Assembly (NCBI GenBank): GCA_040766745.1
Contig: JAXGPX010000002.1
Location: 317,248 to 381,247, forward strand
Source of the DNA: Bacillota bacterium
GTDB lineage: Bacteria > Bacillota > Sulfobacillia > Fermentithermobacillales > Fermentithermobacillaceae
Direction of reading: 5' to 3'
Length of the DNA stretch: 64,000 bases
The notes beneath the pieces are model-generated. The model saw only the letters and a list, made by a program, of their open reading frames with translations, did no database searches and had not been told where the DNA came from. Below, piece by piece: positions 5,984 to 62,451 of this stretch. The position numbers and the translations under genes are program-made. Position 1 is the stretch's first letter. Each line of letters begins with the position of its first letter.

Positions 5984-6022
5984 CCGGGCACATCTCCTTT
6001 CGCAGCAAGAATTCAGCCGCCG

Positions 6023-6901: not shown

Positions 6902-6947
6902 TATGTACCCCTCCAGAATGTTTGGCGGTGTTTGGCAACCAGCCGGC

Positions 6948-7826
6948 CTAATCGGTAATACCCACATCCCGCTTTAACTTGGGATTTAGCACAAATACCC
7001 GTTCATGGATTTCAGGTGAATAAAACTTGAGGTTCCACGATTCATCCGGTCTGCGCAAGGGCTTCTTCGGATCAGTCCCTAGGGACCCACACGTAAAGCT
7101 CCACCATCCCCCAGGATAGCTCGGGATAGGAACTGTATAGAGCCCTGTCACAGGAAACACTCCGGCTATCCTTTGATAAATATCTCTGACCAGTTCAGGA
7201 GTGCCAATGGGGCTTTCGGTCTGCGCACATAACATTCCGCCAGGCTTCAATATCTTGGCTATTGCAGCATAAAATTCAGGCACAAAAAGTGCTTCACCGG
7301 GCCCCTCAGGGTCTGTTGAATCAACAATGACCAGGTCGAACCTGTCCCCGGTTGTTGCAACGAACTTAAGTCCGTCTTCAATCAGAACCCGTGCTCTCGG
7401 ATCACTAAATCCTGTATTCCAGCCCGGAAGGTACTGCTTGGAAGCCTCAACCACGTCACCGTCTATATCTACCATAGTGACTTGCTTTATCCCAGGGTGG
7501 CGAAGGGCCTCACGCAAACTCCCTCCATCCCCACCACCTATTATCAAAACATTCTCGGGGTTGGGATGGCTGAACAGCGGTACATGCACAATGCTTTCGT
7601 GGTATATGTATTCGTCTTTCTCAGTGGTCTGAATTGCGTTATCCAGAACCAACATCCTTCCAAATTCGACAGTGTCGAAAATGCACAACTCCTGGAACTT
7701 TGTACGTTTTGTATAGACAACAGACTCAATCTGAACAGATATACGGAGGCCGTCAAGCCAATCTTCAGTAAACCATACCTGCAATAAAGTCCCCTCCGAG
7801 CATAATAGTTCAAAAACCAACGTCAA
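6948..7826 (-). CDS. speE: spermidine synthase
   Basis: 292-aa ORF with the polyamine aminopropyltransferase motifs VLIIGGGDGG and VDIDGDVVE and an N-terminal WFTE motif. Confidence 0.85.
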   Translation of the reverse strand: MTLVFELLCSEGTLLQVWFTEDWLDGLRISVQIESVVYTKRTKFQELCIFDTVEFGRMLVLDNAIQTTEKDEYIYHESIVHVPLFSHPNPENVLIIGGGDGGSLREALRHPGIKQVTMVDIDGDVVEASKQYLPGWNTGFSDPRARVLIEDGLKFVATTGDRFDLVIVDSTDPEGPGEALFVPEFYAAIAKILKPGGMLCAQTESPIGTPELVRDIYQRIAGVFPVTGLYTVPIPSYPGGWWSFTCGSLGTDPKKPLRRPDESWNLKFYSPEIHERVFVLNPKLKRDVGITD

Positions 7827-7951
7827 GCGTCGAAAGGAATTATATCAGAAAAGGATATGGGATAAAACATTAGCAAAGCAGGGGTAGAGGATATGTTGCC
7901 TTGTAGATGAAATGCTGGTAAGCTGAGTTGTTCAGAAAGGAGAAGTGAGAT

Positions 7952-21578: not shown

Positions 21579-21669
21579 TGGCGGAGGGAGTGGGATTTGA
21601 ACCCACGAGACGCATAACACGTCTACACGCTCTCCAGGCGTGCTCCTTCAGCCGCTCGGACATCCCTCC
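21579..21669 (-). tRNA. tRNA-Ser (anticodon GGA), long variable arm, CCA encoded
   Basis: Manual cloverleaf: GGAGGGA..anticodon loop CTGGAGA..TTCAAAT T-loop..CCA. Confidence 0.85.
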
Positions 21670-21689
21670 GCGTATGGCAGTATATCGAT

Positions 21690-21779
21690 TGGCGGAGGGG
21701 GTGGGATTTGAACCCACGAGGCGCTTGCACGCCTACCCGCTTTCGAGGCGGGCTCGTTCAGCCGCTCCGACACCCCTCC
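21690..21779 (-). tRNA. tRNA-Ser (anticodon CGA)
   Basis: Manual cloverleaf: GGAGGGG..anticodon loop CTCGAAA..long variable arm..CCA. Confidence 0.85.
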
Positions 21780-21906
21780 GGGCATCAAAAGTCCCCACCT
21801 GCCAGGACCTGCCGTACTTAGATTACTTATATCATTTTCAGTTTTCAAGTGCACGTGTTTTAATTTCGACAACACCAGTATTCAAAGTTTACCCTTTGAA
21901 AGGCTG

Positions 21907-22380
21907 TCAGGCACGGAGTTCCTGAAAGAACACTTCGAGAATGTTCCGGCATTCTTCTTCCCTGATTCCTACAGAAACGTCAACTCTGTGATTCAGCCTT
22001 GGATCCCCGGTAATATCCCACAAAGAGCCGCAAGCTCCTGTCTTAGGGTCTCTTGTTCCAACAACCAGCCTGGGGATCCGTGCCATTACTATTGCTCCGG
22101 CACACATGGGGCAAGGTTCAAGGGTTACATACATTGTGGCATCTAAAATGCGCCATCCTGTCTTGTACCGAGCCGCCTGGCGTATGGCAATTATCTCTGC
22201 GTGGGCTGTAGGATCGTTCAGAGTTTCTTTGAGATTGTGCCCCTTACCGATGACTTGGCCATCTCTTAGAATCACTGCCCCAACAGGTACTTCCCCTAAG
22301 GCATAAGCTTTTTTGGCCTCCTCAAGGGCAAGCTCCATACCGTATGAATCAATCCACTCTTTGCTTTTCAAACCATTCAA
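21907..22380 (-). CDS. tadA: tRNA-specific adenosine-34 deaminase
   Basis: CDA zinc motifs HAE...PCPMCAGA. Adjacent to tRNA genes and the SRP RNA, as in B. subtilis (yaaJ). Confidence 0.9.
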   Translation of the reverse strand: MNGLKSKEWIDSYGMELALEEAKKAYALGEVPVGAVILRDGQVIGKGHNLKETLNDPTAHAEIIAIRQAARYKTGWRILDATMYVTLEPCPMCAGAIVMARIPRLVVGTRDPKTGACGSLWDITGDPRLNHRVDVSVGIREEECRNILEVFFQELRA

Positions 22381-22417
22381 TTACTCAATCCACCAGCCTC
22401 GCTGGGCCTACAAAACT

Positions 22418-22496
22418 TGGTGCGCCCGGGAGGACTCGAACCTCCGGCAGACGGGGATTAGGAATCCCCCGCTCTATCCACCTGAGCTACGGGCGC
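22418..22496 (-). tRNA. tRNA-Arg (anticodon CCT); the fold I obtained has an atypical 7-nt variable region
   Basis: GCGCCCGTAGCTCAGGTGGATAGAGC..anticodon stem-loop GGGGA-TTCCTAA-TCCCC..GGAGG-TTCGAGT-CCTCC..CGGGCGCACCA. Confidence 0.7.
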
Positions 22497-22516
22497 AACG
22501 CTACTACTACGATTCA

Positions 22517-22593
22517 TGGTGCGCCCGGCGGGATTTGAACCCACAACCTACAGATCCGTAGTCTGTCGCTCTATCCAATTGAGCTACAGGCGC
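22517..22593 (-). tRNA. tRNA-Arg (anticodon ACG), the TadA substrate
   Basis: GCGCCTGTAGCTCAATTGGATAGAGC..ACAGA-CTACGGA-TCTGT..GTGGG-TTCAAAT-CCCGC..CGGGCGCACCA. Confidence 0.85.
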
Positions 22594-22607
22594 GCCTTAG
22601 ATTTAAG

Positions 22608-22697
22608 TGGCGGAGAGGGAGGGATTCGAACCCTCGAAGGAGTTGCCCCCTTAACGGTTTAGCAAACCGTCGCCCTCGGCCTCTAGGCGACCTCTCC
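22608..22697 (-). tRNA. tRNA-Ser (anticodon GCT)
   Basis: GGAGAGG..ACGGT-TTGCTAA-ACCGT..long variable arm..CCA. Confidence 0.85.
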
Positions 22698-22753
22698 GCA
22701 TCCAAAACCCTACTGCACTGAGTATATTACCACGTCTTGATTGTTGATGCCAG

Positions 22754-22844
22754 TGGCGGAGGGGGTGGGATTCGAACCCACGGAGGGCCAGTAACCCTCA
22801 ACGGTTTTCAAGACCGCCGCATTCAACCGCTCTGCCACCCCTCC
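22754..22844 (-). tRNA. tRNA-Ser (anticodon TGA)
   Basis: GGAGGGG..GCGGT-CTTGAAA-ACCGT..long variable arm..CCA. Confidence 0.85.
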
Positions 22845-47045: not shown

Positions 47046-47263
47046 CCTGTGAGCTTCTTATACGAGTAAGATGAGCATGGGTTTTATCAAGAAACGGATT
47101 CTAGGGGAAACACAACCGCCGTCTTGCTAGGGTGAAGCATATTCGCTACTGTATACAGCCAGATAGAAGGCGTTTTCTTCTCTTCATCGGGCAAGAGGCC
47201 AGTGCATAGAGTAGTCTGATTTGTCTCAAATATTTAACAATTACAGAAATGGTGGTCTTCATA

Positions 47264-48631
47264 ATGAGCAGAAACCTTGAAGAACTCTGGAATGACACAC
47301 TTTCTAGGGCTTCCTTGAGGTTCTCCAACCCGGGATTCATACAAAACTGGCTGAAAGATACCAGGCCAACAGATCTAAAAGGCGATATATTAACCGTAGC
47401 GGTGCCCAGCGAGTTCGCCAAGAACTGGATTGAGTCTAGGTATAAGGACGAGCTTGCCAGGGCTTGGAAAGAAACATACGGTAACCGTTCAGAACTAAGG
47501 TTCACTGTCAAGCAACCTGAGAAACTTGTGCCTGAGGCACTGTTTCCCCAAGAACAGGCTCCGGTGCAAAAGAGGAAACGCACATCTGATGACCGGCTAT
47601 CTCAGGTAAAAAGCCTTAATCCCAGGTATGTGTTTGAGAACTTCATTGTCGGGGCATCTAACAGGTTTGCCCATGCTGCAGCCCTGGCCGTTGCAGAGAG
47701 TCCCTCGAAAGCATATAACCCTCTTTTTTTGTATGGCGGAGTTGGCTTAGGGAAAACACATCTGATGCAAGCCATTGCCCACCATGTGTTTGTCCATCAC
47801 CAAAACCTTAAGATCTCCTATGTATCGTCGGAAACGTTCACAAACGAACTCATTCTTGCGATCCAGGAAGGCAGCACCCAGGAGTTTAGAAACCGTTACC
47901 GGAGCGCAGATATTCTCCTAATTGATGACATTCAATTTGTGGCAGGCAAAGATGCAACCCAGGAAGAATTCTTCCATACGTTCGATGCCCTGCATCAAGC
48001 CTCAAAACAAATAATCATCTCCTCGGACAGGCCCCCAAAGGAAATCTCGACTCTTGAAGAGCGGCTCAGAACACGATTTGAATGGGGCCTAATATGCGAC
48101 ATTCAACCACCTGACATCGAAACTCGCATAGCGATTTTGCGAAAGAAAGCAGAACTGGAAGGAAGGCAAGTACCCCTTGAGGTTTGCCAATATATAGCAG
48201 AAAGAATACCGTCAAATATCCGGGAACTGGAAGGTGCCTTAATCAGAGTTCTAGCATTTACAGCATTGCAAAAGAAAGAAGTCAATTTGCACATAGCCCA
48301 AGAAGTGCTAAGAGACTTGCTCCCTGAAAAAAGGGCGGTTCCAATATCTATCGATGCAATACAGGAGGTTGTCGCAGGCTACTACAATATTTCCATAAGC
48401 GATTTCTCGGCGAAAAGGCGGACACGCAACATTGCTTTTCCCAGGCAAGTGGCTATGTACCTTTGCCGGACTTTGACAGATTCCTCGTTGCCTCAGATAG
48501 GGCATAATTTCGGCGGCCGGGATCATACTACAGTCCTTCATGCCTGTTCAAAGATTGAATCCGAGAGGGAAACTAACCCTGACCTTGATCGCAGTCTAGA
48601 TGAATTGATTAAGCTGATTAGGGAGGGGTAA
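47264..48631 (+). CDS. dnaA: chromosomal replication initiator protein DnaA
   Basis: AAA+ motifs GGVGLGKTHL, domain IV HTH. Start taken at MSRNLEELWN (47264) rather than the upstream in-frame ATG at 47249. Confidence 0.95.
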   Translation: MSRNLEELWNDTLSRASLRFSNPGFIQNWLKDTRPTDLKGDILTVAVPSEFAKNWIESRYKDELARAWKETYGNRSELRFTVKQPEKLVPEALFPQEQAPVQKRKRTSDDRLSQVKSLNPRYVFENFIVGASNRFAHAAALAVAESPSKAYNPLFLYGGVGLGKTHLMQAIAHHVFVHHQNLKISYVSSETFTNELILAIQEGSTQEFRNRYRSADILLIDDIQFVAGKDATQEEFFHTFDALHQASKQIIISSDRPPKEISTLEERLRTRFEWGLICDIQPPDIETRIAILRKKAELEGRQVPLEVCQYIAERIPSNIRELEGALIRVLAFTALQKKEVNLHIAQEVLRDLLPEKRAVPISIDAIQEVVAGYYNISISDFSAKRRTRNIAFPRQVAMYLCRTLTDSSLPQIGHNFGGRDHTTVLHACSKIESERETNPDLDRSLDELIKLIREG

Positions 48632-48651
48632 AATCTTCCTGTGCAGAATTC

Positions 48652-48750
48652 TGTGGATGAAGTCTGGATTACCTGTTGAGGAGATGTGGATAAAATGGCA
48701 ATTTGGGAGCGGATCATCACTTATGCACAATCGTCCACATTTCATCCACA
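48652..48750. other. second DnaA-box cluster plus AT-rich unwinding region (dnaA-dnaN intergenic part of a bipartite oriC)
   Basis: TGTGGATGA, TGTGGATAA (perfect), TTATGCACA and TCATCCACA, followed by AT-rich 48836-48900 (ATATACACAATCGATATAGATAAGGATTGCTTTTTT). Confidence 0.7.
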
Positions 48751-48914
48751 CCTGTCTCCACAGGAGAAAAAGGCGTTCTACGTGGGTCAGAAGAGCCTTT
48801 TCAACAAACTCACAGCGCCTATTACTACTACTGACTTAAAGATATACACAATCGATATAGATAAGGATTGCTTTTTTCAGCAAGAATCTAGATAACAAAC
48901 AGGGAGGGTTACAT

Positions 48915-50051
48915 ATGCATCTGACAATAACAAGAGAACATCTGGCCTGGTTAGTGCAAACAGCTTCTCGTCCGATACCTCCCCGAAGCACTCTGCCTTC
49001 AATCAAGGGCTGCCTTATTGAAGCTCTTTCTGACAGGGTGGTTTTTTCAGGAACTAACCTGGATTGGGGAGTTAGGGTATCTGCACCTGCAAAAGTATCT
49101 TCTTCAGGCTCCCTTGTCGTATCGTCAAAGCTGCTTGAAGATATTGTAAGAACACTGTCGCTGCCGGAAGTTACTCTTTCCCTTGATGAATCAGCCTGGG
49201 CGTTAGTGGTCAAATCAGGAACGTCGGAAATGGTTCTGAATGCAGTTCCGGCCGACGATTTTCCTAAATGGCCTGAGCCTTCAGGAGGACAGCAAATTAC
49301 ACTAAAAGACGAAACATTCAGAGATCTTGTGAAAGTAGGAGCCACGTCAGCGGTAAACAATCCTGCAAGGCCATTGTGGGGTGCTTGCCTGCTTGATCTG
49401 TTAGGTGACAGAATCGTTCTTGTAAGTACAGATCAATTTGCCCTTTCCAGGGCACAAGCTTCTGCAAGCGTTGGTGAGTCGCGTGCCATTGTGCCTGCCA
49501 ATGTATTTCAGGAAATGGCACGCCTTAAGGATACAGAAGAAAGTGATGAGATTACTCTGGCCCTTTCAGACAGCCACTTGTATTTCTCATCAAAAAACCT
49601 ATCTTGCTTTACCCGTCTCATTGAAGGGCAATATTATGCTTACCAGCAGGTAATCCCTAAGTCATGCTCATCGACTGCTAAGGTGGCCACTGCCGATCTT
49701 GCAAGCGCTGCTTCAAGAGCGTCTATAGTGGCAAGTGAAGAAGATAGGGCAATGAGGATAATCCTTGACAAGAATGCCGGAACCCTTACTGTTAGGGCCG
49801 GTTCACCTGAGAAAGGGAAGATGGAGGAGGTACTGCCGGCTGAGGTCACCGGCGAGAATATTGAAATATGGGTTCAACACCGGTATGTACTGCAGGCATT
49901 AGGAAAGATTAGTGCCGGTGAGACAATGCTGGGAATGACAGGCCAGGTAAGCCCTATGCTCATTGAACCGGTTCAGGCGCAAGAAACACCAGGTGATTCA
50001 GTGATGTCCACCTTTGTAGTAATGCCAATGAGCCCTAAGGGAGCATTCTAG
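48915..50051 (+). CDS. dnaN: DNA polymerase III beta sliding clamp
   Basis: 378 aa with three-domain clamp architecture. AGGGAGGG RBS. Confidence 0.95.
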   Translation: MHLTITREHLAWLVQTASRPIPPRSTLPSIKGCLIEALSDRVVFSGTNLDWGVRVSAPAKVSSSGSLVVSSKLLEDIVRTLSLPEVTLSLDESAWALVVKSGTSEMVLNAVPADDFPKWPEPSGGQQITLKDETFRDLVKVGATSAVNNPARPLWGACLLDLLGDRIVLVSTDQFALSRAQASASVGESRAIVPANVFQEMARLKDTEESDEITLALSDSHLYFSSKNLSCFTRLIEGQYYAYQQVIPKSCSSTAKVATADLASAASRASIVASEEDRAMRIILDKNAGTLTVRAGSPEKGKMEEVLPAEVTGENIEIWVQHRYVLQALGKISAGETMLGMTGQVSPMLIEPVQAQETPGDSVMSTFVVMPMSPKGAF

Positions 50052-50054
50052 CCG

Positions 50055-51161
50055 TTGCAGTTTTCTTATGTTTACCTAAGACACTTCCGTAACTACCGGT
50101 ACCTGGAGCTTGAGCTGCCTCAAGGTGCATCTTTATTCATCGGCGATAATGCCCAGGGGAAAACCAATTTGCTTGAGGCCTGCTATTATGTGTCTTCTCT
50201 AAATTCGCCGAGATCCGAAAAAGAATCAGACCTGGCCTATTGGGGGGAGCAGTCATTTTCACTGGCTGCCCGGCTCGAAGGTGACGAAGAGTCTACTACA
50301 GTCAAAATCGAGACTGCTGTAACTCCGTCTGTTCGGCGTAGAATCGAGATTAACGACAGATACGCCAGGAGGCAGGACCTTTTGGCGTTGTTTCCTTGCG
50401 TCTACTTCTCTCCTGATGATCTATATATGATAAAGGGAAGTTCTGCATTAAGGCGAAAGTTCATTGATTCAATACTCTCACGCCAGGACCCGGTGTATGC
50501 CAAGGAACTGTCTCGATACAACGAAACAGTATCCAGGCGTAATATGGCCTTAAAGAAGGCCGGAATGGATGCGTCTTGGTTGAAAGCTCTTGAGAGTCTT
50601 GATGAGCTCCTGGTGAATTTTGGCTCCAGGGTACTCGAGAAACGGCTTCAACTCATTGAGAGACTGTCTGCCTTTGTCAAGACTACCTACGATTTCATCT
50701 CTACAGGGGATTGCGATGTAACATATGCTTCAACCATTGGAGAAATCGAGCCTGACTTAGGAGTTATCAAAGCCCAATTTGCAAAGAAACTTGGCGAGAT
50801 AAAGAGGGATGAGAGACTGCGGGGCATAACCCTTGCCGGCCCTCACAGAGATGAGATGGTAGTATCTTTTCAGGGAAAGACATTTAGGTACTTTGGGTCC
50901 CAGGGCCAGCAGCGTAGCATGGTTTTGGCTTTGAAAATGGCTGAAGCCAGAGCCCTTGAAGCAACGTTCAATACGAAGCCGGTTCTTCTTTTAGACGACG
51001 TTCTGTCAGAACTGGATTCAGAGAAGCGTCTGCAAGTTCTTTCGTTGTGCGACTTTGGGTACCAGGTCTTGATGACCTCAACAGAGATGCCTGAAGATAC
51101 CAGGCCAAGGTTTTCAGTATTTGTGGTAGAGAGAGGCCAAGTACGGCCGGCAAATAACTAG
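50055..51161 (+). CDS. recF: DNA replication and repair protein RecF
   Basis: Walker A GDNAQGKTN and the ABC signature region. TTG start 4 nt after the dnaN stop. Confidence 0.9.
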   Translation: MQFSYVYLRHFRNYRYLELELPQGASLFIGDNAQGKTNLLEACYYVSSLNSPRSEKESDLAYWGEQSFSLAARLEGDEESTTVKIETAVTPSVRRRIEINDRYARRQDLLALFPCVYFSPDDLYMIKGSSALRRKFIDSILSRQDPVYAKELSRYNETVSRRNMALKKAGMDASWLKALESLDELLVNFGSRVLEKRLQLIERLSAFVKTTYDFISTGDCDVTYASTIGEIEPDLGVIKAQFAKKLGEIKRDERLRGITLAGPHRDEMVVSFQGKTFRYFGSQGQQRSMVLALKMAEARALEATFNTKPVLLLDDVLSELDSEKRLQVLSLCDFGYQVLMTSTEMPEDTRPRFSVFVVERGQVRPANN

Positions 51162-51189
51162 CGGATAAATGGGAGAGTGAGGGCAAACT

Positions 51190-52110
51190 ATGGCACGTCC
51201 AGAGATTGTAGGCAATGTCTTGCAGAGATCCTTAGACGGCATGGGCCTTCTCCCAAAGGCCAGGCGATTCCAGGTTTTTGCCCTGTGGCCGAGAATCGTT
51301 GGAGATATTGCTCTAAATGCACGGCCTCGCAGGGTCGATGGCGATGTGTTGTATGTTGCCACGTCTTCGTCGATGTGGGCCCAGGAACTGAGCATGATGC
51401 GACGTAGGATTATATCCGAGATAAACAGGGCTTTAGGCGGCGATTACTTAAAAGATATTCGCTTTTCTGAGCACTTGTGGGGTATAACCGGTAATTATTC
51501 CGGCAGCGAAACTGATAATTTCCCTGACAAAGAATACAGAGAATTTATCTCTCAACCTGACTCAATAAGCAGGCCCGATTTGTCGAGAATCAAATTGCTC
51601 ATTGGAGGCGAACACGATTCCACGCTTTCCTTCACTTTCCAGAAGTTTGCTGTTACTATGGAAAAGCGGAAAAAATATCTTGTGAGAAAAGGTTATCAGA
51701 AGTGCCCTACGTGTGGATATATTTATCAACCGGGACGTAAATGCCCAAGTTGCAGAGCAAAAGAGGAATTTTACAATCACCGCAAGATAATCTCCATTCT
51801 TGAGAAACACCCTGAAACGTCAGACACTACCTTGTCTGTAAGTACAGGCATAACTCAGAGACACGTGTTTGAACGGGCAAGGGAAGAGCTGGATTCAAGA
51901 TGGTACCGCACTGTAATAAGTGGCGTCTTCAAGGCCGGCTCCGGGCAGTTGTCCGGTAACGAGAAAGCCCAATTACAGGGTTTGATAAAGAAGCTGGCGA
52001 GTTTACGCAGCGGGAAACCTGAGCATGAACTAACACAACAGGATCTTAACAAAGTTCTGGGAAAACGTTTTTCGGGTTTGCTGAAACATCAGCGTTGGAG
52101 AAAAAAGTAG
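51190..52110 (+). CDS. DUF721 (YaaB-like, RecF-associated) protein with long C-terminal extension containing a CxxC...CxxC zinc ribbon
   Basis: The N-terminal ~100 aa match DUF721 (LPKARRFQVFALWPRIVGDIALNARPRRVDGDVLYVATSSSMWAQEL). The extension holds CPTCGYIYQPGRKCPSCR. It sits in the conserved recF-gyrB slot. Confidence 0.7.
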   Translation: MARPEIVGNVLQRSLDGMGLLPKARRFQVFALWPRIVGDIALNARPRRVDGDVLYVATSSSMWAQELSMMRRRIISEINRALGGDYLKDIRFSEHLWGITGNYSGSETDNFPDKEYREFISQPDSISRPDLSRIKLLIGGEHDSTLSFTFQKFAVTMEKRKKYLVRKGYQKCPTCGYIYQPGRKCPSCRAKEEFYNHRKIISILEKHPETSDTTLSVSTGITQRHVFERAREELDSRWYRTVISGVFKAGSGQLSGNEKAQLQGLIKKLASLRSGKPEHELTQQDLNKVLGKRFSGLLKHQRWRKK

Positions 52111-52186
52111 TCTGTTTTCTCTGTGAGGGTGTGTTACTCCAATGGCATCTTCATCGAACATAGATTCGCCACACGAACTATGCTAA

Positions 52187-54130
<1,944 letters not shown>

Positions 54131-54147
54131 GGAAAGGGGCTTTACGC

Positions 54148-56580
54148 ATGACAGATATCGCTCGGAGGTTGGTTTCAACACCTATAGAAGAAGAAATGAA
54201 ACGGTCTTACATCGACTACTCCATGAGTGTAATTGTTTCCCGCGCCCTGCCCGATGTGCGTGACGGCCTGAAACCCGTTCAGAGAAGAATTATCTACTCA
54301 ATGGATGAGTTAGGGGTAAGGCATGATAAGCCGCATAAGAAATCTGCAAGGCTTGTTGGCGAGGCCATGGGAAAGTACCATCCCCACGGAGACTCGGCCA
54401 TATATGATGCCCTGGTTAGGATGGCACAGCCATTCAATATGAGATATCCCCTTGTTGACGGCCACGGAAACTTTGGGTCGGTTGACGGAGACTCACCGGC
54501 GGCCATGCGGTACACAGAGGCGAGATTAACAGCTATTGCAGAAGAACTTCTTGTAGATCTGGATAAAGAAACCGTAGATTTTGTGCCAAACTTTGATGAC
54601 AGCCTGAAGGAACCTGCTGTTCTCCCTTCAAGAATCCCTAATCTTATGGTTAACGGGTCTGCCGGAATTGCCGTTGGCATGGCTACAAATATCCCGCCCC
54701 ATAACCTTGGAGAAACAGTAGATGCACTAATTGCGCTTATAGATAATCCGGAACTAGGGCCTTTGGACCTTATGGAGTACATTAAAGCCCCTGACTTTCC
54801 TACAGGCGGCCTAATAGTGGGGTTGGGCCCTGTGAGATCTTTGTACACTACCGGTAGGGGAGTAATGAAACTCAGGGCTAAGACCAGGATTGAACGAGAC
54901 AAGAAAAACGGCAAGCAGTGGATTGTTGTTGATGAGCTTCCTTACCAGGTCAACAAAGCCCGGCTTATTGAGAACATAGCAGATTTGGTAAGAGACAAGA
55001 AGATTCAGGGTGTAACAGACTTAAGAGATGAGAGTGACAAGAGCGGCCTCAGAGTCGTTATAGAGGTGCGGAAGGATGTAGAAGCCAAGGTTGTTCTTAA
55101 CCAGCTTTTCAAGCATACAACCTTGGAAACAAGCTTTGGAGGCATAATGCTAGCCCTGGTTAACGGGCGGCCTGAGGTGCTTGATTTAAGGGCCATGCTT
55201 TCACACTACATCTCCCACAGGGAAGAGGTAGTTACCAGAAGGACCAGATACGAGCTGAGGAAGGCCGAAGAAAGGGCTCACATTCTTGCGGGCCTTGAGA
55301 TTGCCCTTGCCAACCTTGATGAAGTAATCGCCATAATCAGAAGTTCCCAAAACGGCGAAGAAGCCCGTAACAGGCTCATGGAGAGGTTTGTTCTTGACGA
55401 GATACAGGCAAAAGCCATTCTGGATATGAGGCTTGAGCGGCTTACCGGCCTTGAGAGAGACAAGATCATCGAAGAACGCAGGGCTTTGCTGAAGGAAATT
55501 GAGTACCTAAGGGCGGTCCTCGGTTCAGAAAAGATGATTCTTGGCATAGTTAAGAAGGAACTGGAGGATGTGAAAAAGAAATATGCAGACCCACGGCGTA
55601 CTCGCATCCTGGCCAAGGCCGAAGAGATTTCGGAAGAGGAACTTATTATAGAGCAGGAAGTTTCGGTGATTTTGACAGGCATGGGGTATATCAAGAGAAT
55701 GCCCCTAAACATATACCGGAGCCAGAGAAGAGGCGGGCTGGGCGCTACAGCCATGCAGACCAGGGACGAGGACTGGGTGGAAAAGGTTGTATCCACTACG
55801 ACCCGTGAATCCTTGCTGCTGTTTACTTCCCATGGAAAAGCCTACTGGCTAAAGGTTTTTGAGATACCTGAAGCTGGAAAACAGGCAAAGGGGCACCTGA
55901 TGTCCAGGCTAATTGCCCTTGATAAGGGCGAAAGGGTCACTGCACTTATACCTGTCCCTGCAAAGCCGGAGACGGCAGGAGACTTGTTCTTCGTAACCAA
56001 GCAGGGAATGTGCAAGAGGACTCCGTTCTCTGAATACTTAACACAGAGAAAAACGGGACTCAGGGCCATAAATCTTAGGACAGGAGATTCGCTGATTCTC
56101 GCCCGCCTGGCGCAAGACGGTGATGAGGTACTTATCGGTACTTCATTCGGTAAGGCCTTAAGAATGAAAGTAGATGATGTTAGGACTATGGGCCGGACTG
56201 CCACCGGTGTGATTGGAATAAGGCTTGCCAAGGGCGACTACGTTGTCGGGGCCGATCCGGTTACGCCTGACGCAAAAGTGCTATTGGTGAGTGAATACGG
56301 ATACGGCAAGATAACAAAAGTCGGCGGTTTTCCTCTTCAGGGAAGGGGAGGAAAAGGAGTCATTGCCCTCAAGGTTTCAGAAAAGAGCGGGCCTCTGGCT
56401 ATTATGCGATTGGTTTCGCCCCAAGATGAAGAGGCTTTGCTCATTACTGCAGAGGGAGTGGCAATAAGGATAGACTTGTCTGAGATCAAAGTAGCCCGCA
56501 GGGCCACTTTGGGCGTTAGGCTTATGAAAATCGAGCCTAACGACAGGCTATCGGCTTGCAGCATTCTTGAAGGAGAATAA
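54148..56580 (+). CDS. gyrA: DNA gyrase subunit A
   Basis: Active-site Tyr region ([10 protein letters not shown]), QRDR and the C-terminal beta-pinwheel repeats. 810 aa. Confidence 0.95.
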
Positions 56581-56582
56581 GA

Positions 56583-57008
56583 ATGCCTGCAGGGTTTCAG
56601 ATTGTTGATCATGTTGCAGATGTACGAGTACGGGCGTGGGGGACCTGCTTCCAGGAGGCCTTTTCTGAAATTACAAAAGGCATGTGGTTTCTCATGTTTG
56701 GCGGAAGCAGTATCCCCGCCCTGGATAAATGGAGTGTTGAGGTAAGAGGCATTGATATGGAAGACCTCTTAATCGGCTTTCTCAATGAGCAGCTGGCACT
56801 TTTCGACATTGAGGGCCTGGCTGTTTCCGGCACAGAAGAGATAATTTTCGAAGAAAGCCCAGACGGTGAAGAAATCTGCCTGAAATCAGTTATGTGTGGG
56901 GCTCATATCTCCCAGGTAAACGTAAGACCTGATCTGCAAATCAAAGCCGCTACTTTTCACAGACTAAAGCTAACTCCCACCGAGGCCTGGGTCACGTTCG
57001 ACGTTTGA
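56583..57008 (+). CDS. archease (RtcB activator)
   Basis: 141 aa beginning FQIVDHVADVRVRAWG. Directly upstream of rtcB. Confidence 0.8.
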   Translation: MPAGFQIVDHVADVRVRAWGTCFQEAFSEITKGMWFLMFGGSSIPALDKWSVEVRGIDMEDLLIGFLNEQLALFDIEGLAVSGTEEIIFEESPDGEEICLKSVMCGAHISQVNVRPDLQIKAATFHRLKLTPTEAWVTFDV

Positions 57009-57077
57009 AACAACAGTGTTTGAAAAGCCGAGGATACCAGACTAAACGGCAAAACTATTAAAGGGAGTGTTCCTCTA

Positions 57078-58523
57078 ATGGCAATGGATCTAAGACGGGT
57101 TTCAGGGCAACAGTGCCATTGGATTATGCCCAAAAAGGACGGCATGAAAGTAGACGGAATTGTGTATGGAACAAAGGAGATTATCCAAGACCTGGAGGGG
57201 ACTAAGGCTCTAGAGCAAGTAAGAAACGTTGCATACTTGCCCGGCATACTCCAGGCGTCTCTGGCCATGCCTGATATCCATGAAGGATATGGGTTTCCAA
57301 TAGGCGGAGTTGCTGCGACAGATTTGGATAGCGGTGTCATAAGCCCAGGCGGAATCGGATACGACATAAATTGCGGTGTTAGGCTAATGGTTTCTAGCCT
57401 TACCCGGCCTGAAGCAGAGAAGCATATTGAGAGACTGGTAGAAGCTTTCTTTGCAAGAATTCCGTCAGGCGTAGGGAGGGAAGGGGCAATCCGCCTTTCA
57501 AAAAAGGAACTTGAAGGCGTCCTGACACAGGGTGCGAAATGGGCGGTTAAGAAAGGGTATGGCTGGAACGGGGACTTAGAGCATTCTGAAGAGCAAGGCG
57601 CAATGGATGGGGCAGACCCCGGCAATGTATCTGAGCGCGCCCTCAAGCGTGGAAGCAGCGGATTGGGGACCTTAGGTTCAGGCAATCACTTTGTTGAAGT
57701 AAGTTTCGTTGAACAGATCTTTAATAAGCAGGCAGCAGAGGCCTTCGGACTCTTTCCGGATCAGGTTGTTTTCTGGGTCCATTCAGGATCTCGGGGCCTT
57801 GGCCACCAGGTATGCACTGACTACCTCACCGTAATGAGGAGGGCTGTCCCCAAATACGGCATATCTTTACCTGACAGGCAGCTAGACTGCGCTCCGGCCA
57901 TGTCTGATGAAGGCAGACGGTATTTCTCGGCAATGGCCGCAGCTGCCAACTACGCTTGGGCAAACAGGCAGATCTTGGCCCATTACGTGAGGGAATCTAC
58001 CGGAAAGGTATTTGGAAAAAGCCCTGAGAGCCTGGGAATGCACTTGCTTTATGATGTAGCACATAACATTGGGAAGATAGAAGAGCACAGGGTAGGCGGA
58101 AGCAACCGGAAGGTGCTTGTACACAGGAAAGGCGCAACCAGGGCGTTCGGCCCCGGGCACATAGATGTGCCTGAAAGGTACAGGAATCTTGGCCAGCCGG
58201 TCTTAATACCCGGTGACATGGGAACAGGCTCATATATTCTCATAGGCACTGAAGAAGCCATGGAATTCTCATTTGGATCTGCGTGTCATGGAGCAGGAAG
58301 GGCCCTTTCCAGGACTCAGGCCAAGAATACTATTTCGGCCAAGGAACTAAGGGATCAGCTGGCGAGCCACGGTGTTTATGTGAGGTCTGCCACTGTGAAA
58401 GGGCTTGTAGAAGAGGCGCCTGATGCCTATAAAGATGTAGATTCAGTGGTAGAGGCCACTAGCTGTGCCGGACTTGCCGAGAGGGTAGCTAGAGTGCGCC
58501 CTATGGGGGTAATAAAAGGGTAG
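57078..58523 (+). CDS. rtcB: RNA-splicing ligase RtcB
   Basis: RtcB metal-binding motifs (GYDINCGVRL, HSGSRGLGHQ, SACHGAGR). 481 aa. Confidence 0.9.
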   Translation: MAMDLRRVSGQQCHWIMPKKDGMKVDGIVYGTKEIIQDLEGTKALEQVRNVAYLPGILQASLAMPDIHEGYGFPIGGVAATDLDSGVISPGGIGYDINCGVRLMVSSLTRPEAEKHIERLVEAFFARIPSGVGREGAIRLSKKELEGVLTQGAKWAVKKGYGWNGDLEHSEEQGAMDGADPGNVSERALKRGSSGLGTLGSGNHFVEVSFVEQIFNKQAAEAFGLFPDQVVFWVHSGSRGLGHQVCTDYLTVMRRAVPKYGISLPDRQLDCAPAMSDEGRRYFSAMAAAANYAWANRQILAHYVRESTGKVFGKSPESLGMHLLYDVAHNIGKIEEHRVGGSNRKVLVHRKGATRAFGPGHIDVPERYRNLGQPVLIPGDMGTGSYILIGTEEAMEFSFGSACHGAGRALSRTQAKNTISAKELRDQLASHGVYVRSATVKGLVEEAPDAYKDVDSVVEATSCAGLAERVARVRPMGVIKG

Positions 58524-58656
58524 ACGTTGTGAGCATGAGGCAACCTGGGGGCAGGCCACGGCAGGTTAGCAGTTAACATGTGTAGAATCATGAAGGGGAT
58601 ACATTGATAATTCCAGGCAGCCGTATGCAAGGCAATACCAGAAAGGGGACGCAGGT

Positions 58657-59466
58657 ATGACCGTCACTGACAGGAAGGCAGATATTGCGGTTATAGGGGG
58701 AACCGGCTTTTATAAGTTTCTGGATGATGTTACTGAGATCCAAGTAAATACTCCCTACGGTTTCACATCTGATCGAATATCCCTCGGGTCGCTTTCAGGC
58801 AAGAAGATTGCTTTCCTACCAAGACATGGAAAGCAGCACCAGTACCCGCCTCATATGGTAAACTACAGGGCCAATTTGTGGGCACTTAAGCAGCTTGGGG
58901 TATCACAGGTTCTTGGGCCTTGTGCAGTGGGCAGCCTGCAGCCTGATGTGCACCCGGGAGACTTTGTTTTTTGCGATCAATTTGTGGATAGAACTACAGG
59001 CAGAAAAGATACGTTTTATGATGGGCCAAAGACGGTTCACCTGAGCTCTGCTGATCCGTACTGCCAGGAATTACGTGAGATCGGCATAGAAGCCGCCAGG
59101 GAACTTGGCTTGCGCTATCACCCTACCGGCACAATGGTAGTAATTCAAGGCCCGAGATTTTCCACCAGGGCAGAATCTAAATGGTTCTCGTCTATGGGAT
59201 GGAAGGTCGTCAACATGACCGGCTACCCCGAGGTCATGCTGGCACGGGAATTGGGCATGTGTTATTTGAACGTATCGCTGATAACAGATTACGATGCCGG
59301 CCTTGAAGGAAGAGATGACATAAAACCTGTAACCGCAGAAGAAGTAACCAAGGTGTTCATGGAACATAATGAGCTGTTGAAGAAACTTATGGCAAAGATC
59401 ATTGATGCAGTTCCAGCTGACCGCCATTGCTCATGCCACCACGAGCTCGAAAGAATCATGTCTTGA
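58657..59466 (+). CDS. mtnP: S-methyl-5'-thioadenosine phosphorylase (PNP family)
   Basis: PNP/MTAP fold (ADIAVIGGTGF...). Adjacent to mtnA. Confidence 0.8.
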   Translation: MTVTDRKADIAVIGGTGFYKFLDDVTEIQVNTPYGFTSDRISLGSLSGKKIAFLPRHGKQHQYPPHMVNYRANLWALKQLGVSQVLGPCAVGSLQPDVHPGDFVFCDQFVDRTTGRKDTFYDGPKTVHLSSADPYCQELREIGIEAARELGLRYHPTGTMVVIQGPRFSTRAESKWFSSMGWKVVNMTGYPEVMLARELGMCYLNVSLITDYDAGLEGRDDIKPVTAEEVTKVFMEHNELLKKLMAKIIDAVPADRHCSCHHELERIMS

Positions 59467-59479
59467 GAGGTGGCCCAAT

Positions 59480-60556
59480 ATGATACCTGCTATCAAGTGG
59501 GATAATGGGGTCCTGTCGTTATTGGACCAAAGGCTTCTGCCTGAGCGAATTGAGTATGTTGAATGCAATGATTACAAGCAGGCGGCTAAAGCCATTAAGG
59601 ATATGGTAGTACGTGGAGCGCCTGCTATAGGTATAGCCGGAGGCTATGGTGTTGCCCTGGCAGTAGAAGAGGCTGTAGGTGAGTTTGGCTCTGGCCCAGG
59701 CGACACAAGCACCATGGCCAAAACAGAAGAGTTCTTACGACAGGCCGGTACATACCTGGCTTCTGCAAGGCCCACGGCTGTAAACTTACCCTGGGCTGTT
59801 GGCCGTGTGCTCAGTAAGGCAATATTCTCCCTTAATGCTGACGGAATAATCAAAGCATTGGAAGTTGCCCGGTCTGAGGCCAGGGCAGTGGAACTTGAAG
59901 ACATTGAGATTAACCACAAGATAGGTTCTAATGGTTCAGCCCTCATTAAGCCGGGTTCCAGAGTCCTCACACACTGTAATGCAGGGGCTCTAGCCACAGG
60001 TGGCTGGGGTACCGCCCTGGGCATAGTGCGCCAGGCGTGGTCCGAGGGCAAAATCTCAATGGTATATGCAGATGAGACCCGGCCTTTTCTTCAAGGTGCC
60101 AGGCTTACTGCATGGGAGCTTATGCAAGACGGGATTGATGTAACGGTGCTGGTTGACAGTGCCGCCGGGTACTTGATATCCCAGGGAAATGTTGATGCAG
60201 TCATTGTTGGCGCAGATCGAATCGCAGCAAACGGGGATACAGCCAACAAAATTGGAACATATACGCTGGCTTGTTTATGCCGGCAACACTGTATACCATT
60301 CTACGTTGCAGCCCCTGTCTCTACATTTGACCTGAATTTGAACAGCGGCAGCGAGATACCTGTTGAACAACGGGCCGAAGCCGAAGTTCTCGAGTTTATG
60401 GGCCGCCCGGTGGCTCCCAAGGGAGTAAGGGCGTTTAATCCATCCTTTGATGTGACTCCGGGGGACATGATTTCCGCTATAATTACAGAGAGGGGTGTCA
60501 TATCTCCTATATCGGAAGAAAACATCAAGAGGGCCATGCCCGGTTTGAACCCATAG
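59480..60556 (+). CDS. mtnA: methylthioribose-1-phosphate isomerase (eIF2B-related)
   Basis: MIPAIKWDNGVLSLLDQRLLP... is typical of MtnA. GAGAGGTGG RBS. The listed 59402 start is an upstream in-frame extension. Confidence 0.85.
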   Translation: MIPAIKWDNGVLSLLDQRLLPERIEYVECNDYKQAAKAIKDMVVRGAPAIGIAGGYGVALAVEEAVGEFGSGPGDTSTMAKTEEFLRQAGTYLASARPTAVNLPWAVGRVLSKAIFSLNADGIIKALEVARSEARAVELEDIEINHKIGSNGSALIKPGSRVLTHCNAGALATGGWGTALGIVRQAWSEGKISMVYADETRPFLQGARLTAWELMQDGIDVTVLVDSAAGYLISQGNVDAVIVGADRIAANGDTANKIGTYTLACLCRQHCIPFYVAAPVSTFDLNLNSGSEIPVEQRAEAEVLEFMGRPVAPKGVRAFNPSFDVTPGDMISAIITERGVISPISEENIKRAMPGLNP

Positions 60557-60558
60557 GG

Positions 60559-60609
60559 GCATATGTAGACAGCAGACAGCGAACTGCATATGCGTGCATT
60601 GATTTTTTT
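60559..60609 (+). terminator. possible intrinsic terminator after mtnA
   Basis: GCATATG...CATATGC 7-bp stem followed by GATTTTTTTGG. Confidence 0.35.
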
Positions 60610-60640
60610 GGCATAGAGATGGATACCGGAGGAGGAGAAC

Positions 60641-61060
60641 ATGGAACCTGCAAGAAGATTCGTTGATTCAGGTTGGCGGTTGACAATCCCCAAAGCAATG
60701 CGCCAGAGCCTGGGGTGGGCTGAAAACACCCTGGTATGCCTTCATTGGGATGGCTTTGAGATTACCATCAAGGCTCCCTTTGCCGGTTGCAGTAAGTGTC
60801 CGGATATAAGCCGTATAGGCGCGCTTGGCAAGCTGGTGATTCCTCAGCGGGTAAGAGAGGAAGCAGGACTTTATCCTGGGCAGATCCTGACGCTGGCCAT
60901 TGAAGACAGACAGGTTATTGTATCTACAGGTGACAAGCAGGTACGCTGTAGCGCATGTGGTTCCGAACTTGACGTCAGAAAAGTCCTTCCAAATGTACAT
61001 TTGTGTACAACATGCCGGGATAAGCTCCAATCGGCAGCAGGCAAGTCCAGAAAAGCGTAA
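60641..61060 (+). CDS. tandem-AbrB/SpoVT-fold (x2) protein with C-terminal CxxC...CxxC zinc ribbon
   Basis: Two swapped-hairpin-like segments (GWRLTIPKAMRQSLGW; GKLVIPQRVREEAGL) then CSACGSELD...LCTTCRDK. Strong GGAGGAGGAG RBS. Confidence 0.65.
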   Translation: MEPARRFVDSGWRLTIPKAMRQSLGWAENTLVCLHWDGFEITIKAPFAGCSKCPDISRIGALGKLVIPQRVREEAGLYPGQILTLAIEDRQVIVSTGDKQVRCSACGSELDVRKVLPNVHLCTTCRDKLQSAAGKSRKA

Positions 61061-61083
61061 CTATTCCAAGGGTGGTATGGTTC

Positions 61084-61524
61084 GTGGAGAATGAAAAACT
61101 AGATAAGCAACACGTACGTACTCTTACTACCGGATGGAGGCTTACCCTTCCTGCCCAACTAAGGAGGGCTCTCGGTTGGGAACAGGGCACTATGCTCAGG
61201 GTCACGGTTACAGGTGATCAGCTGGCATTATCCAAAGGAGCAGATGTGCCTCAAGGAAGTCCCGCAAGTAACAGTAATTCGGGTTCAACCTGTTATATTG
61301 GGTCCGGTGGGAAGATAGTAATACCTTCTGAGGTTAGGGAGTTAACAGGCTGGCAAGTTGGTGAAAGGCTTTCTGTTAGAAATCAGGGCCAAGAAATAGT
61401 CATATCTCCATGCTGTCAAAAGCACAGATGCCGTTCATGTGGGAGTCTGCATGGTGTAACTGAAGTAATCGACAACCTGTTTTTGTGTTCAGATTGCTGG
61501 AGCCGGTACCTGCTGAAAAACTGA
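61084..61524 (+). CDS. paralogous tandem-AbrB-fold protein with C-terminal zinc ribbon
   Basis: GWRLTLPAQLRRALGW and GKIVIPSEVRELTGW, followed by CCQKHRCRSCGS...CSDCW. Probable GTG start at 61084 with AAGGGTGG 8 nt upstream. Confidence 0.6.
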   Translation: MENEKLDKQHVRTLTTGWRLTLPAQLRRALGWEQGTMLRVTVTGDQLALSKGADVPQGSPASNSNSGSTCYIGSGGKIVIPSEVRELTGWQVGERLSVRNQGQEIVISPCCQKHRCRSCGSLHGVTEVIDNLFLCSDCWSRYLLKN

Positions 61525-61694
61525 TTTACACCTGGGAATTACTACTGTAGACTGTAAAGGCAAGTTGTATGCTCTGCGTTATTGCCTGCTACAGGAGTTG
61601 TCTAGCATCTGGTTTTAGGAGTGGCTCGATTACGGAAGTATATGTGGCTAGGTGGCATAGAATTAAGCTGAACGGGGGAGCGGAGGCGAGGCCT

Positions 61695-62141
61695 GTGTGG
61701 AAAGAATTCAAGGAGTTTGCCCTAAAGGGTAATGTCATCGATCTTGCCATTGGCGTAGTCATCGGTGGAGCCTTTGGCAAAATAGTCAGTTCTATGGTCA
61801 ATGATTTGATAATGCCGTTAGTTTCCCTATTCACCGGTAGAATGGATTTTACTAACTGGTTCGTGGCCCTTGACGGAGTGGCCTACAAGACACTGGAAGA
61901 GGCTAAAGAAGCAGGTGCAGCCACACTCAACTATGGCAATTTCCTCACCGTAGTCGTAGATTTCCTGATTATTGCTTTTGCCCTTTTCTTGATTGTAAAG
62001 CAGATCAACAGAGCAAGAGCCAAGAAGGCAGCTCCGGCCGAGGTACCTGCTGAGCCTACGACCAAGGCCTGTCCTTTCTGCCAGAGTGAGATATCTGTAA
62101 AGGCGGTTAAGTGCCCACATTGCACTTCAGATTTGAAGTAG
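61695..62141 (+). CDS. mscL: large-conductance mechanosensitive channel MscL with C-terminal zinc-ribbon tail
   Basis: KEFKEFALKGNVIDLAIGVVIGGAFGKIVSSMVNDLIMP is the MscL signature. The C-terminus has CPFCQ...CPHC. Probable GTG start at 61695 after GGAGG; the listed 61569 start adds 42 unrelated residues. Confidence 0.8.
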   Translation: MWKEFKEFALKGNVIDLAIGVVIGGAFGKIVSSMVNDLIMPLVSLFTGRMDFTNWFVALDGVAYKTLEEAKEAGAATLNYGNFLTVVVDFLIIAFALFLIVKQINRARAKKAAPAEVPAEPTTKACPFCQSEISVKAVKCPHCTSDLK

Positions 62142-62290
62142 CAAGTCTGCGGCAACAGAAAAGTATATTGCACGCGGAGGCAGCACTTGGCTACCGGCAA
62201 TGCAGTTAGCCAATTCATGGTAAATTACAAGCATTGGTTTGTGGGTTCTTGCGCGAGCACTTATTGCAAGATATAATTAGTCTGCAAAGA

Positions 62291-62365
62291 GCGAGAGTAG
62301 TTTAGTGGTAGAACATCGGCTTCCCAAGCCGAGGGCCGCGGGTTCGAATCCCGTCTCTCGCTCCA
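62291..62365 (+). tRNA. tRNA-Gly (anticodon CCC)
   Basis: GCGAGAGTAGTTTAGTGGTAGAAC..TCGGC-TTCCCAA-GCCGA..GCGGG-TTCGAAT-CCCGT-CTCTCGC-T-CCA. Confidence 0.85.
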
Positions 62366-62376
62366 AATTTTTAAGA

Positions 62377-62451
62377 GCCGGCGTAGCTCAACGGCAGAGC
62401 AACGGTTTCGTAAACCGTAGGTTAAGGGTTCGATTCCCTTCGCCGGCTCCA
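62377..62451 (+). tRNA. tRNA-Thr (anticodon CGT)
   Basis: GCCGGCGTAGCTCAACGGCAGAGC..ACGGT-TTCGTAA-ACCGT..AAGGG-TTCGATT-CCCTT-CGCCGGC-T-CCA. Confidence 0.85.

Follow-up and report, generated by a model that had tools for sequence, protein, structure and literature searches.

What are the two small, related proteins encoded directly upstream of mscL in a member of the Fermentithermobacillaceae, and do they belong with the channel? The question arises at a locus on contig JAXGPX010000002.1 of a Bacillota bacterium (assembly GCA_040766745.1), of which a stretch of 64,000 nucleotides (nt) was analysed. This stretch is called the window; all positions are positions in it and refer to its forward strand unless stated otherwise. 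The first-pass annotation, made from the letters of the sequence, had described two adjacent genes, here named A and B, each with two AbrB/MazE/SpoVT-like segments and a four-cysteine module, followed by an mscL gene with a zinc-ribbon tail of its own. The three were taken as a possible shared metal- or redox-sensing module, or as a regulator pair together with its channel. The analysis presented here shows that the A/B pair is a lineage-specific subfamily of an architecture that is real and widespread, and that carries generic annotations.

The three open reading frames (ORFs) and the peptides quoted from them are present as first described. Gene A (60641-61060) encodes a protein of 139 amino acids (aa) and gene B (61084-61524) one of 146 aa, both of the double-AbrB plus four-cysteine (C4) zinc-finger type, and they represent paralogue groups A and B, respectively. 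The ATG start read at first holds for A, but not for B or mscL, both of which start with GTG. P0001, a database protein 99% identical to B, likewise has 146 aa. Ribosome-binding sites precede both genes, GGAGGAGGAG in front of A and AAGGGTGG in front of B. The two genes are 23 nt apart and no terminator is predicted between them. This is in line with the co-transcription that had been proposed, and A and B are very probably co-transcribed. Two metagenomic gene calls, P0018 (172 aa) and P0161 (177 aa), join the C-terminus of A to the N-terminus of B, or show A frameshifted at the zinc finger; such fusions are probably assembly or sequencing errors and not real fusions.

Both proteins match AbrB domain models above the curated cut-offs, and each does so in two stretches. 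With PF04014 (cut-off 24.7 bits) A scores 31.6 bits and B 49.8 bits, and with TIGR01439 (AbrB; cut-off 28.3 bits) A scores 40.9 bits and B 54.3 bits. In a BLASTP comparison A and B display 31% identity over 127 residues (E 3e-22), and the alignment spans both halves and the cysteine motif. By sequence similarity, A and B are thus paralogues in the AbrB/MazE/SpoVT superfamily, and on this point, as on the two segments per gene, the first description was correct.

Structure prediction with AlphaFold2 on the family alignment gave predicted local distance difference test (pLDDT) values of 87.7 for A and 83.7 for B, with a disordered linker between the two halves of B. In Foldseek searches with the B model, crystal and cryo-electron microscopy structures of MraZ are nearest (E 8e-6, template modelling score 0.52), and the best PDB matches of the predicted folds of A and B are MraZ, PhS018, SpoVT and AbrB. 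Therefore the prediction for each protein is a swapped-hairpin barrel formed by a single chain, which bears out the AbrB-like fold assigned at first. Taken together, we hold the architecture and the fold to be very likely.

The first AbrB-like half of A comprises residues ~4-44 (60650-60772), with predicted strands at residues 4-7, 13-15, 31-36 and 41-44 and a helix at 18-24. The second half, residues ~56-100 (60806-60940), has its best Pfam/TIGR01439 stretch at 57-94, and shows strands at 56-58, 64-66, 81-88 and 91-100 and a helix at 69-75. In B the first half extends over residues ~10-51 (61111-61236; best Pfam stretch 20-51), with strands at 10-13, 19-21, 37-43 and 46-51 and a helix at 24-30. 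A low-complexity linker follows (61237-61284), whose length differs between orthologues and whose pLDDT falls below 50 at residues 58-65. The second half of B, residues ~68-109 (61285-61410), includes a conserved C70 and has its best TIGR01439 stretch at 72-109; here the strands are at 68-71, 77-79, 95-100 and 104-109 and the helix is at 82-88. In a hidden Markov model (HMM) alignment, R6, R13 and R21 of A fall on R8, R15 and R23 of AbrB, which are established by AbrB mutagenesis as its DNA-contact arginines. R6, R13 and R21 are invariant in the alignment of 34 orthologues. K64 and R72 occupy equivalent positions in the second half of A.

The C-terminal module is conserved in both paralogue groups. 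Its four cysteines, C103, C106, C122 and C125 in A and C116, C119, C135 and C138 in B, have a middle spacing of x15, and these cysteines and the motif R-C-x2-C-G...L-C-x2-C are invariant in the 34 orthologues of both groups. Thus the four-cysteine module noted for each protein is confirmed at the family level. The four cysteines are also invariant in 37 distant double-AbrB relatives. In A the finger and the C-terminal helix lie at 60944-61054, where the model shows a hairpin (strands 113-116 and 119-121) and then a helix at 123-138. In B they lie, with an invariant cysteine pair C110/C111, at 61411-61518 (strands 125-129 and 132-135, helix 136-145). In the predictions a knuckle is followed by a beta-hairpin and then by a helix starting at the second CxxC, so that in the models the module looks nearer to a treble clef than to a ribbon of the rubredoxin type. 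The C4 zinc finger of DksA/TraR was considered and rejected: the NCBIfam TraR models give E values of 0.007-0.011 and 16-17 bits against cut-offs of 60-108, and the coiled coil is missing.

Each paralogue group keeps, besides the finger, exactly three further cysteines, at places that differ between the groups, and thus has seven conserved cysteines in all. In A the triad is C33, C50 and C53 (60737-60805), with a linker of the form C50-x2-C53-P-D55; its cysteines occur in 29-30 of 30 orthologues, and C33, C53 and D55 are invariant in the group-A alignment. In B the triad is C70, C110 and C111 (61291-61416); C110 and C111 are invariant in 23 group-B sequences and C70 is found in at least 90%. 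These extra cysteines are missing from most of the distant relatives that share the architecture. Their role may be structural, or they may make up an additional metal or redox site.

The pair was compared with related systems. MraZ (PF02381; PDB 1n0e, 9qlg, 9sz7) has, like A and B, two AbrB-like halves in one chain that form one barrel. However, MraZ has no zinc finger, and in sequence the halves of A and B are nearer to AbrB (TIGR01439) than to MraZ. Unlike mraZ, moreover, the pair does not head the dcw (mraZ-mraW/rsmH-ftsL) cluster, its neighbours being mtnA, mscL and tRNA genes. Membership in MraZ itself was rejected: with the Pfam MraZ model, whose cut-off is 23 bits, A scores 15.2 bits and B 13.0 bits, and the NCBIfam MraZ equivalogs are unmatched. 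The N-terminal domains of AbrB, Abh and SpoVT (PDB 1yfb, 1z0r, 2w1t) belong to the same half-domain family as the halves of A and B, with the aligned arginines described above, and in SpoVT the AbrB domain is a DNA-binding head joined to another domain. The canonical proteins of this type carry one half per chain and build the barrel by homodimerisation, whereas A and B carry two, and the C-terminal multimerisation or GAF domains of AbrB and SpoVT are unrelated to the Cys4 finger. PhS018 of Pyrococcus horikoshii (PDB 2glw) is an archaeal protein of 92 aa without a zinc finger. A tblastn search of the window did not find canonical AbrB or SpoVT, with query sequences that were not drawn from a database record.

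The complete architecture, two AbrB halves plus a C4 finger, is not covered by any Pfam, NCBIfam or PDB entry, but related proteins are numerous. At E values of 1e-3 or below, an exhaustive profile search gave 960 representatives. The top 150 of these include about 60 other clusters (at 50% identity) whose proteins are 101-160 aa long and combine two AbrB hairpin motifs with a single CxxC...CxxC, and about 35 proteins of at most 100 aa with one AbrB motif and the finger; a few relatives are proteins of the form (AbrB-finger)x2 or longer fusions. The unnamed Bacillota proteins of the double type (~130-145 aa, e.g., P0172-P0303) have a three-part layout identical to that of A and B, but they are only ~23% identical to them, and only the finger cysteines are invariant. 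An hhalign comparison of the A/B family with 37 such distant proteins gave a probability of 99.6% (E 9e-25) over 131 columns that include both halves and the finger. On these profile comparisons, A and B are a divergent branch of a much larger group.

This group includes phage and plasmid proteins. Proteins of the phage family PHROG 4681 (~87 aa) consist of a single AbrB half with the same CxxCG...CxxC finger and helix behind it. They lack the additional N-terminal half and the Cys triads, none of them has been characterised, and with one half per chain they are presumably dimeric. Residues 58-135 of A match positions 9-85 of the 87 in phrog_4681 (E 2.5e-16) and residues 74-140 of B match positions 12-77 (E 6.9e-16), E values for which PHROGs has no curated cut-off. 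Gp48 of Paenibacillus phage Dragolir, annotated as "transcriptional regulator AbrB", is such an AbrB plus finger unit, and other members are found in a phage-like contig, in an early region of a Clostridium butyricum prophage and in a Paenibacillus larvae plasmid. The phage members are in early or regulatory regions, beside antirepressor and excisionase genes. P0172, the one distant member whose surroundings were examined, lies within phage-like sequence and does not form a tandem pair. In a fold search of BFVD the matches are unnamed or uncharacterised phage proteins only. The AbrB-AbrB-C4 module is also found N-terminal to a CHAD domain in P0182, P0202 and P0226 (e.g., Halobacillus rhizosphaerae WP_411790608.1) and N-terminal to a MEDS sensory domain in P0203. 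By analogy, these fusions have the layout of one-component regulators, in which a DNA-binding head is joined to a sensor.

Public annotations of these proteins read "hypothetical", "AbrB/MazE/SpoVT family" or "PrlF-type antitoxin", and a literature search did not find a study of the double-AbrB plus zinc-finger architecture. The earlier proposal of a candidate undescribed transcription-factor family thus stands in part: no named family or paper was found for the whole architecture, but it is widespread in Bacillota and phages and already bears generic annotations. The architecture is uncharacterised rather than unseen.

Orthologous loci of the pair were sought by scanning one genome per GTDB species, and this gave 30 species loci. 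All are from Candidatus Fermentithermobacillaceae, including the complete genome of Ca. Fermentithermobacillus carboniphilus, or from metagenome-assembled genomes (MAGs) of unclassified Bacillota or "Eubacteriales" with an identical gene order. Word-indexed protein searches found only ~20 clusters per paralogue, all from Bacillota MAGs. The A/B subfamily is thus confined to Candidatus Fermentithermobacillaceae. B follows A directly in 29 of the 30 loci, and in the remaining one (L036) the contig stops just after A. The gap between the two genes ranges from -4 to ~90 nt. The gene order in the relatives is gyrA-archease-rtcB-mtnP-mtnA-(serS in some)-A-B-tRNA-Gly-tRNA-Thr, and an amidohydrolase gene and/or a 2-oxoacid:ferredoxin oxidoreductase operon are found beyond the tRNA genes. 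The tRNA pair is ~50-140 nt past the stop codon of B in 24 of the 26 related loci scanned. The pair is a clean case of a duplication followed by fixed co-inheritance within one family.

Across species, 15-85 nt separate A from the gene before it, and only the Shine-Dalgarno sequence is conserved in this spacer; the distance from the stop codon of mtnA or serS to the start of A is no more than ~25 nt in some species. From these short spacers and the gene order, A and B appear to be the last genes of a longer housekeeping operon, without a promoter or operator of its own. The spacers 60557-60640 and 61525-61694, in which a search for a shared operator had been proposed, have no direct or inverted repeat in common.

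On these results A and B are most likely a jointly acting pair of DNA-binding regulators of the AbrB/MraZ type. The two AbrB half-domains of one chain would together make up a whole swapped-hairpin beta-barrel, the arrangement known from MraZ, and the DNA-binding surface would be asymmetric and come from one polypeptide, where canonical AbrB needs a homodimer. Since one chain would form the whole barrel, the two DNA-contacting halves could diverge and read asymmetric sites. The invariant C-terminal Cys4 finger would bind a structural zinc. The finger and helix stand where the C-domain of AbrB multimerises, and so they probably hold barrels together, most likely as A-B hetero-oligomers. A hetero-oligomer is the simplest reading because of the strict co-inheritance and the occasional overlap between the stop codon of A and the start codon of B. 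In Candidatus Fermentithermobacillaceae the pair would serve as a nucleoid-associated factor or as a chromosomal regulator of transcription. It would be expressed from the origin-proximal housekeeping operon archease-rtcB-mtnP-mtnA-(serS)-A-B, and would have no specific relation to mscL.

The regulator interpretation is supported by the two AbrB stretches per protein and the paralogy, the retention of the AbrB DNA-contact positions, the invariant finger, the pairing of A and B in 29 of 30 loci, the operon context, the use of the module as a head in fusions, the homology found by hhalign, and the early or regulatory setting of the phage members. Several observations weigh against it. The three extra cysteines of each protein are not accounted for by a purely structural zinc finger. 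BLASTP gave no alignment of half against half within A or within B; the halves of one protein are too diverged for it, and the internal duplication is drawn from the profile matches and the predicted fold only. A conserved operator or target site was not found across the upstream spacers of the different species. Finally, the synteny says little on function, because all carriers are of one family with a conserved gene order. With both sides considered, DNA-binding regulation by the pair is reasonably probable, and the chance that the explanation is right as a whole is a little better than even. The A-B heteromer is a tentative element of it, with the odds somewhat against.

The alternative that survives best is a refinement of the regulator interpretation, in which A and B are redox- or metal-sensing regulators. 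The extra Cys triads would hold a second metal, an iron-sulfur (Fe-S) cluster or reversible disulfides, and would switch DNA binding in these strict anaerobes. The seven conserved cysteines of each group point in this direction, with the nearly complete retention of the A triad, the invariance of D55 and of the C110/C111 pair of B and the high conservation of C70, as does the absence of the extra cysteines from most distant relatives. However, no known cluster-binding motif was matched in Pfam or NCBIfam, and in a thermophile the conserved cysteines may be purely structural. The triads are at different positions in A and in B, so that they are not an inherited common site. We regard such sensing as rather unlikely. 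A bolder form can be put forward, in which A and B are an obligate heteromeric Cys redox or Fe-S switch on an MraZ-like barrel, and DNA binding is gated by a labile cluster or a second metal bound in the triads (C33/C50/C53 and D55 of A; C70/C110/C111 of B). The pair could then be a global regulator of the transition state or of anaerobiosis in the Fermentithermobacillaceae, as AbrB is in Bacillus. To our knowledge a cluster sensor made of Cys triads is not known in the AbrB superfamily, and this form is a long shot.

Next is a role outside of transcription, whereby the barrel and finger would bind RNA or protein and might, for instance, be tied to the flanking RNA-repair and tRNA genes. Swapped-hairpin and related cradle-loop barrels also serve non-DNA ligands, and the constant order rtcB...mtnA-(serS)-A-B-tRNA-Gly-tRNA-Thr would fit with such a role. 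But this synteny is within one family and so may simply be inherited. The arginines that correspond to the AbrB DNA contacts are kept, relatives are fused to sensor domains in the manner of typical DNA-binding heads, and the tRNA genes appear to have a -10 box of their own in the window. An RNA- or protein-binding role is thus quite improbable.

The pair could also be a remnant of a mobile element, either type II antitoxins or phage-derived immunity regulators. The second half and finger of both proteins match phrog_4681, which is labelled "antitoxin", the IMG label is that of a PrlF-type antitoxin ("PrlF/YhaV antitoxin"), and members of the wider family are often found in phages, prophages and plasmids. 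Against this, neither the window nor any of more than 30 related loci has a toxin gene (MazF, YhaV, VapC, Doc) beside the pair, although no PADLOC search was made; what borders the genes is mtnA or serS, the paralogous partner and tRNA genes. The locus is chromosomal and origin-proximal, with a fixed position and vertical inheritance across the whole family, and in this it differs from the phage and prophage setting of PHROG 4681. The A/B family has no relative in the viral contigs of IMG/VR, and one distant member used as a single query likewise found no viral relatives. An origin as antitoxins or immunity regulators is therefore very improbable.

As for the channel, mscL (61695-62141) encodes 148 aa and is a lineage-specific insertion outside of the A/B unit, as seen from the synteny. 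A longer ORF from an ATG at 61569 would add a leader that is not MscL sequence. The protein matches PF01741 with 148.3 bits (cut-off 27.4) over residues 1-119, which correspond to model positions 1-110 of 123, and NF010557 with 169 bits (cut-off 159). It has the N-terminal helix, TM1, loop and TM2 of the canonical MscL of E. coli and M. tuberculosis, but leaves the last positions of PF01741 unmatched, which we take to be the cytoplasmic helical bundle. It ends instead in a short zinc ribbon, C126-x2-C129-x10-C140-x2-C143 (62070-62123), in a variant that is widespread in Bacillota. The tail is thus outside of the canonical bundle, as had been stated, but it is not peculiar to this locus. The CxxC-x10-CxxC tail ends all of the 120 best MscL homologues, among them proteins of cultured Clostridium and Brevibacillus and of MAGs assigned to Tissierella and Lachnospiraceae. 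The tail gives only sub-threshold hits to Pfam short zinc ribbons, and its spacing of x10 differs from the x15 of the A/B finger. A literature search found no relevant paper on an MscL with a zinc ribbon or zinc finger.

The adjacency of mscL to the pair is equally restricted. mscL follows right after B only in the window and in its closest relative (L044, GCA_053529315.1), and it was not found within ~5 kb of the pair in the loci of 30 other species. In MAG AnMBR.bin277, whose A and B are 78% and 67% identical to those of the window, the orthologous mscL is on another contig, beside sbcCD-like genes. In another relative (L037) the junction between B and the tRNA genes (5950-9900) has a 4-kb cassette of four ORFs and no mscL; from the ORF translations this cassette looks like an iron/cobalamin-type ABC transporter. 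With mscL in two genomes and the ABC cassette in a third at one junction, the B/tRNA-Gly junction (61525-62290 in the window) is a site of variable insertion; mscL arrived there recently, in a lineage-specific event, and is unrelated to A and B. Three C4 proteins in a row are unremarkable because A and B are paralogous and count as one event and mscL is a recent arrival; the C4 motif is found in 5 of the 59 long ORFs of the window. That A and B regulate mscL, with the three proteins sharing a zinc-ribbon sensing module, is hardly credible: apart from the adjacency in two genomes and a C4 motif in all three proteins, the gene is elsewhere or its place is taken by another cassette, the tail accompanies MscL whatever the context and differs in type and spacing from the finger, and the spacers share no motif.

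Other features of the window give the setting of the pair. Upstream are archease (56583-57008), rtcB (57078-58523), mtnP (58657-59466) and mtnA (~59480-60556), a block at 56583-60556 that was assigned from the ORFs and is found in the same order, with Pfam labels, in the relatives. The longest mtnA ORF (TTG at 59402) overlaps the end of mtnP; the orthologues, 353-360 aa long, point to the ATG at 59480 as the true start. The window includes the replication-origin region, with an ORF of dnaA size (460 aa) at 47249 followed by dnaN, recF, gyrB and gyrA (47249-56580), names that come from gene position and from the Pfam labels in the relatives. The A/B pair is therefore ~12 kb from dnaA, on the leading strand. 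Between recF and gyrB a 306-aa ORF (51190-52110) has a CPTCG...CPSC motif. Farther away, at 21579-22844 on the minus strand, six tRNA genes are clustered, four for tRNA-Ser and two for tRNA-Arg.

Directly after the mtnA stop codon there is a hairpin (60559-60593, in the region 60559-60610; inverted repeat with a 10-bp stem; RNA fold -25.3 kcal/mol, z -2.7), followed by a run of seven T. Judged from its sequence, it is possibly a weak terminator or an attenuator of read-through ahead of A. It is not conserved across species, and a comparable hairpin of another sequence is found in L044 and L001. Downstream of B are its conserved neighbours, the genes for tRNA-Gly(CCC) and tRNA-Thr(CGU) (62291-62451; ARAGORN, Rfam), and past these, in the window, an amidohydrolase gene on the minus strand. 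A perfect -10 box, TATAAT (62272-62277), is found 13 nt before the tRNA-Gly gene, with a weak -35 sequence TTGCGC 17 nt upstream (region 62249-62277). By its sequence this is a likely promoter of the tRNA pair, although it falls below the threshold of the promoter scan. The counts of the promoter and terminator scan are at or under the shuffled expectation, and a search of Rfam at E 0.1 found the two tRNAs but no riboswitch or other RNA element near the genes.

No channel-regulator system emerges from this locus. The MscL with a zinc-ribbon tail is a separate matter, a common variant of the channel that has apparently not been discussed before. The tail seems to have taken the place of the usual C-terminal bundle, which may make the variant interesting for channel biophysics. 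As for the A/B pair, if the interpretation given here is true, the doubled AbrB domain with a zinc finger would be a second widespread route, beside MraZ, to a single-chain swapped-hairpin DNA-binding barrel, and a zinc-dependent module would take the place of the multimerisation domain of AbrB. The lineage-specific Cys triads of the Fermentithermobacillaceae pair hint at sensing. The design is common in Firmicutes, phages and plasmids and yet no member has been studied, so that a single biochemical characterisation would inform hundreds of genes now annotated as "AbrB/antitoxin".

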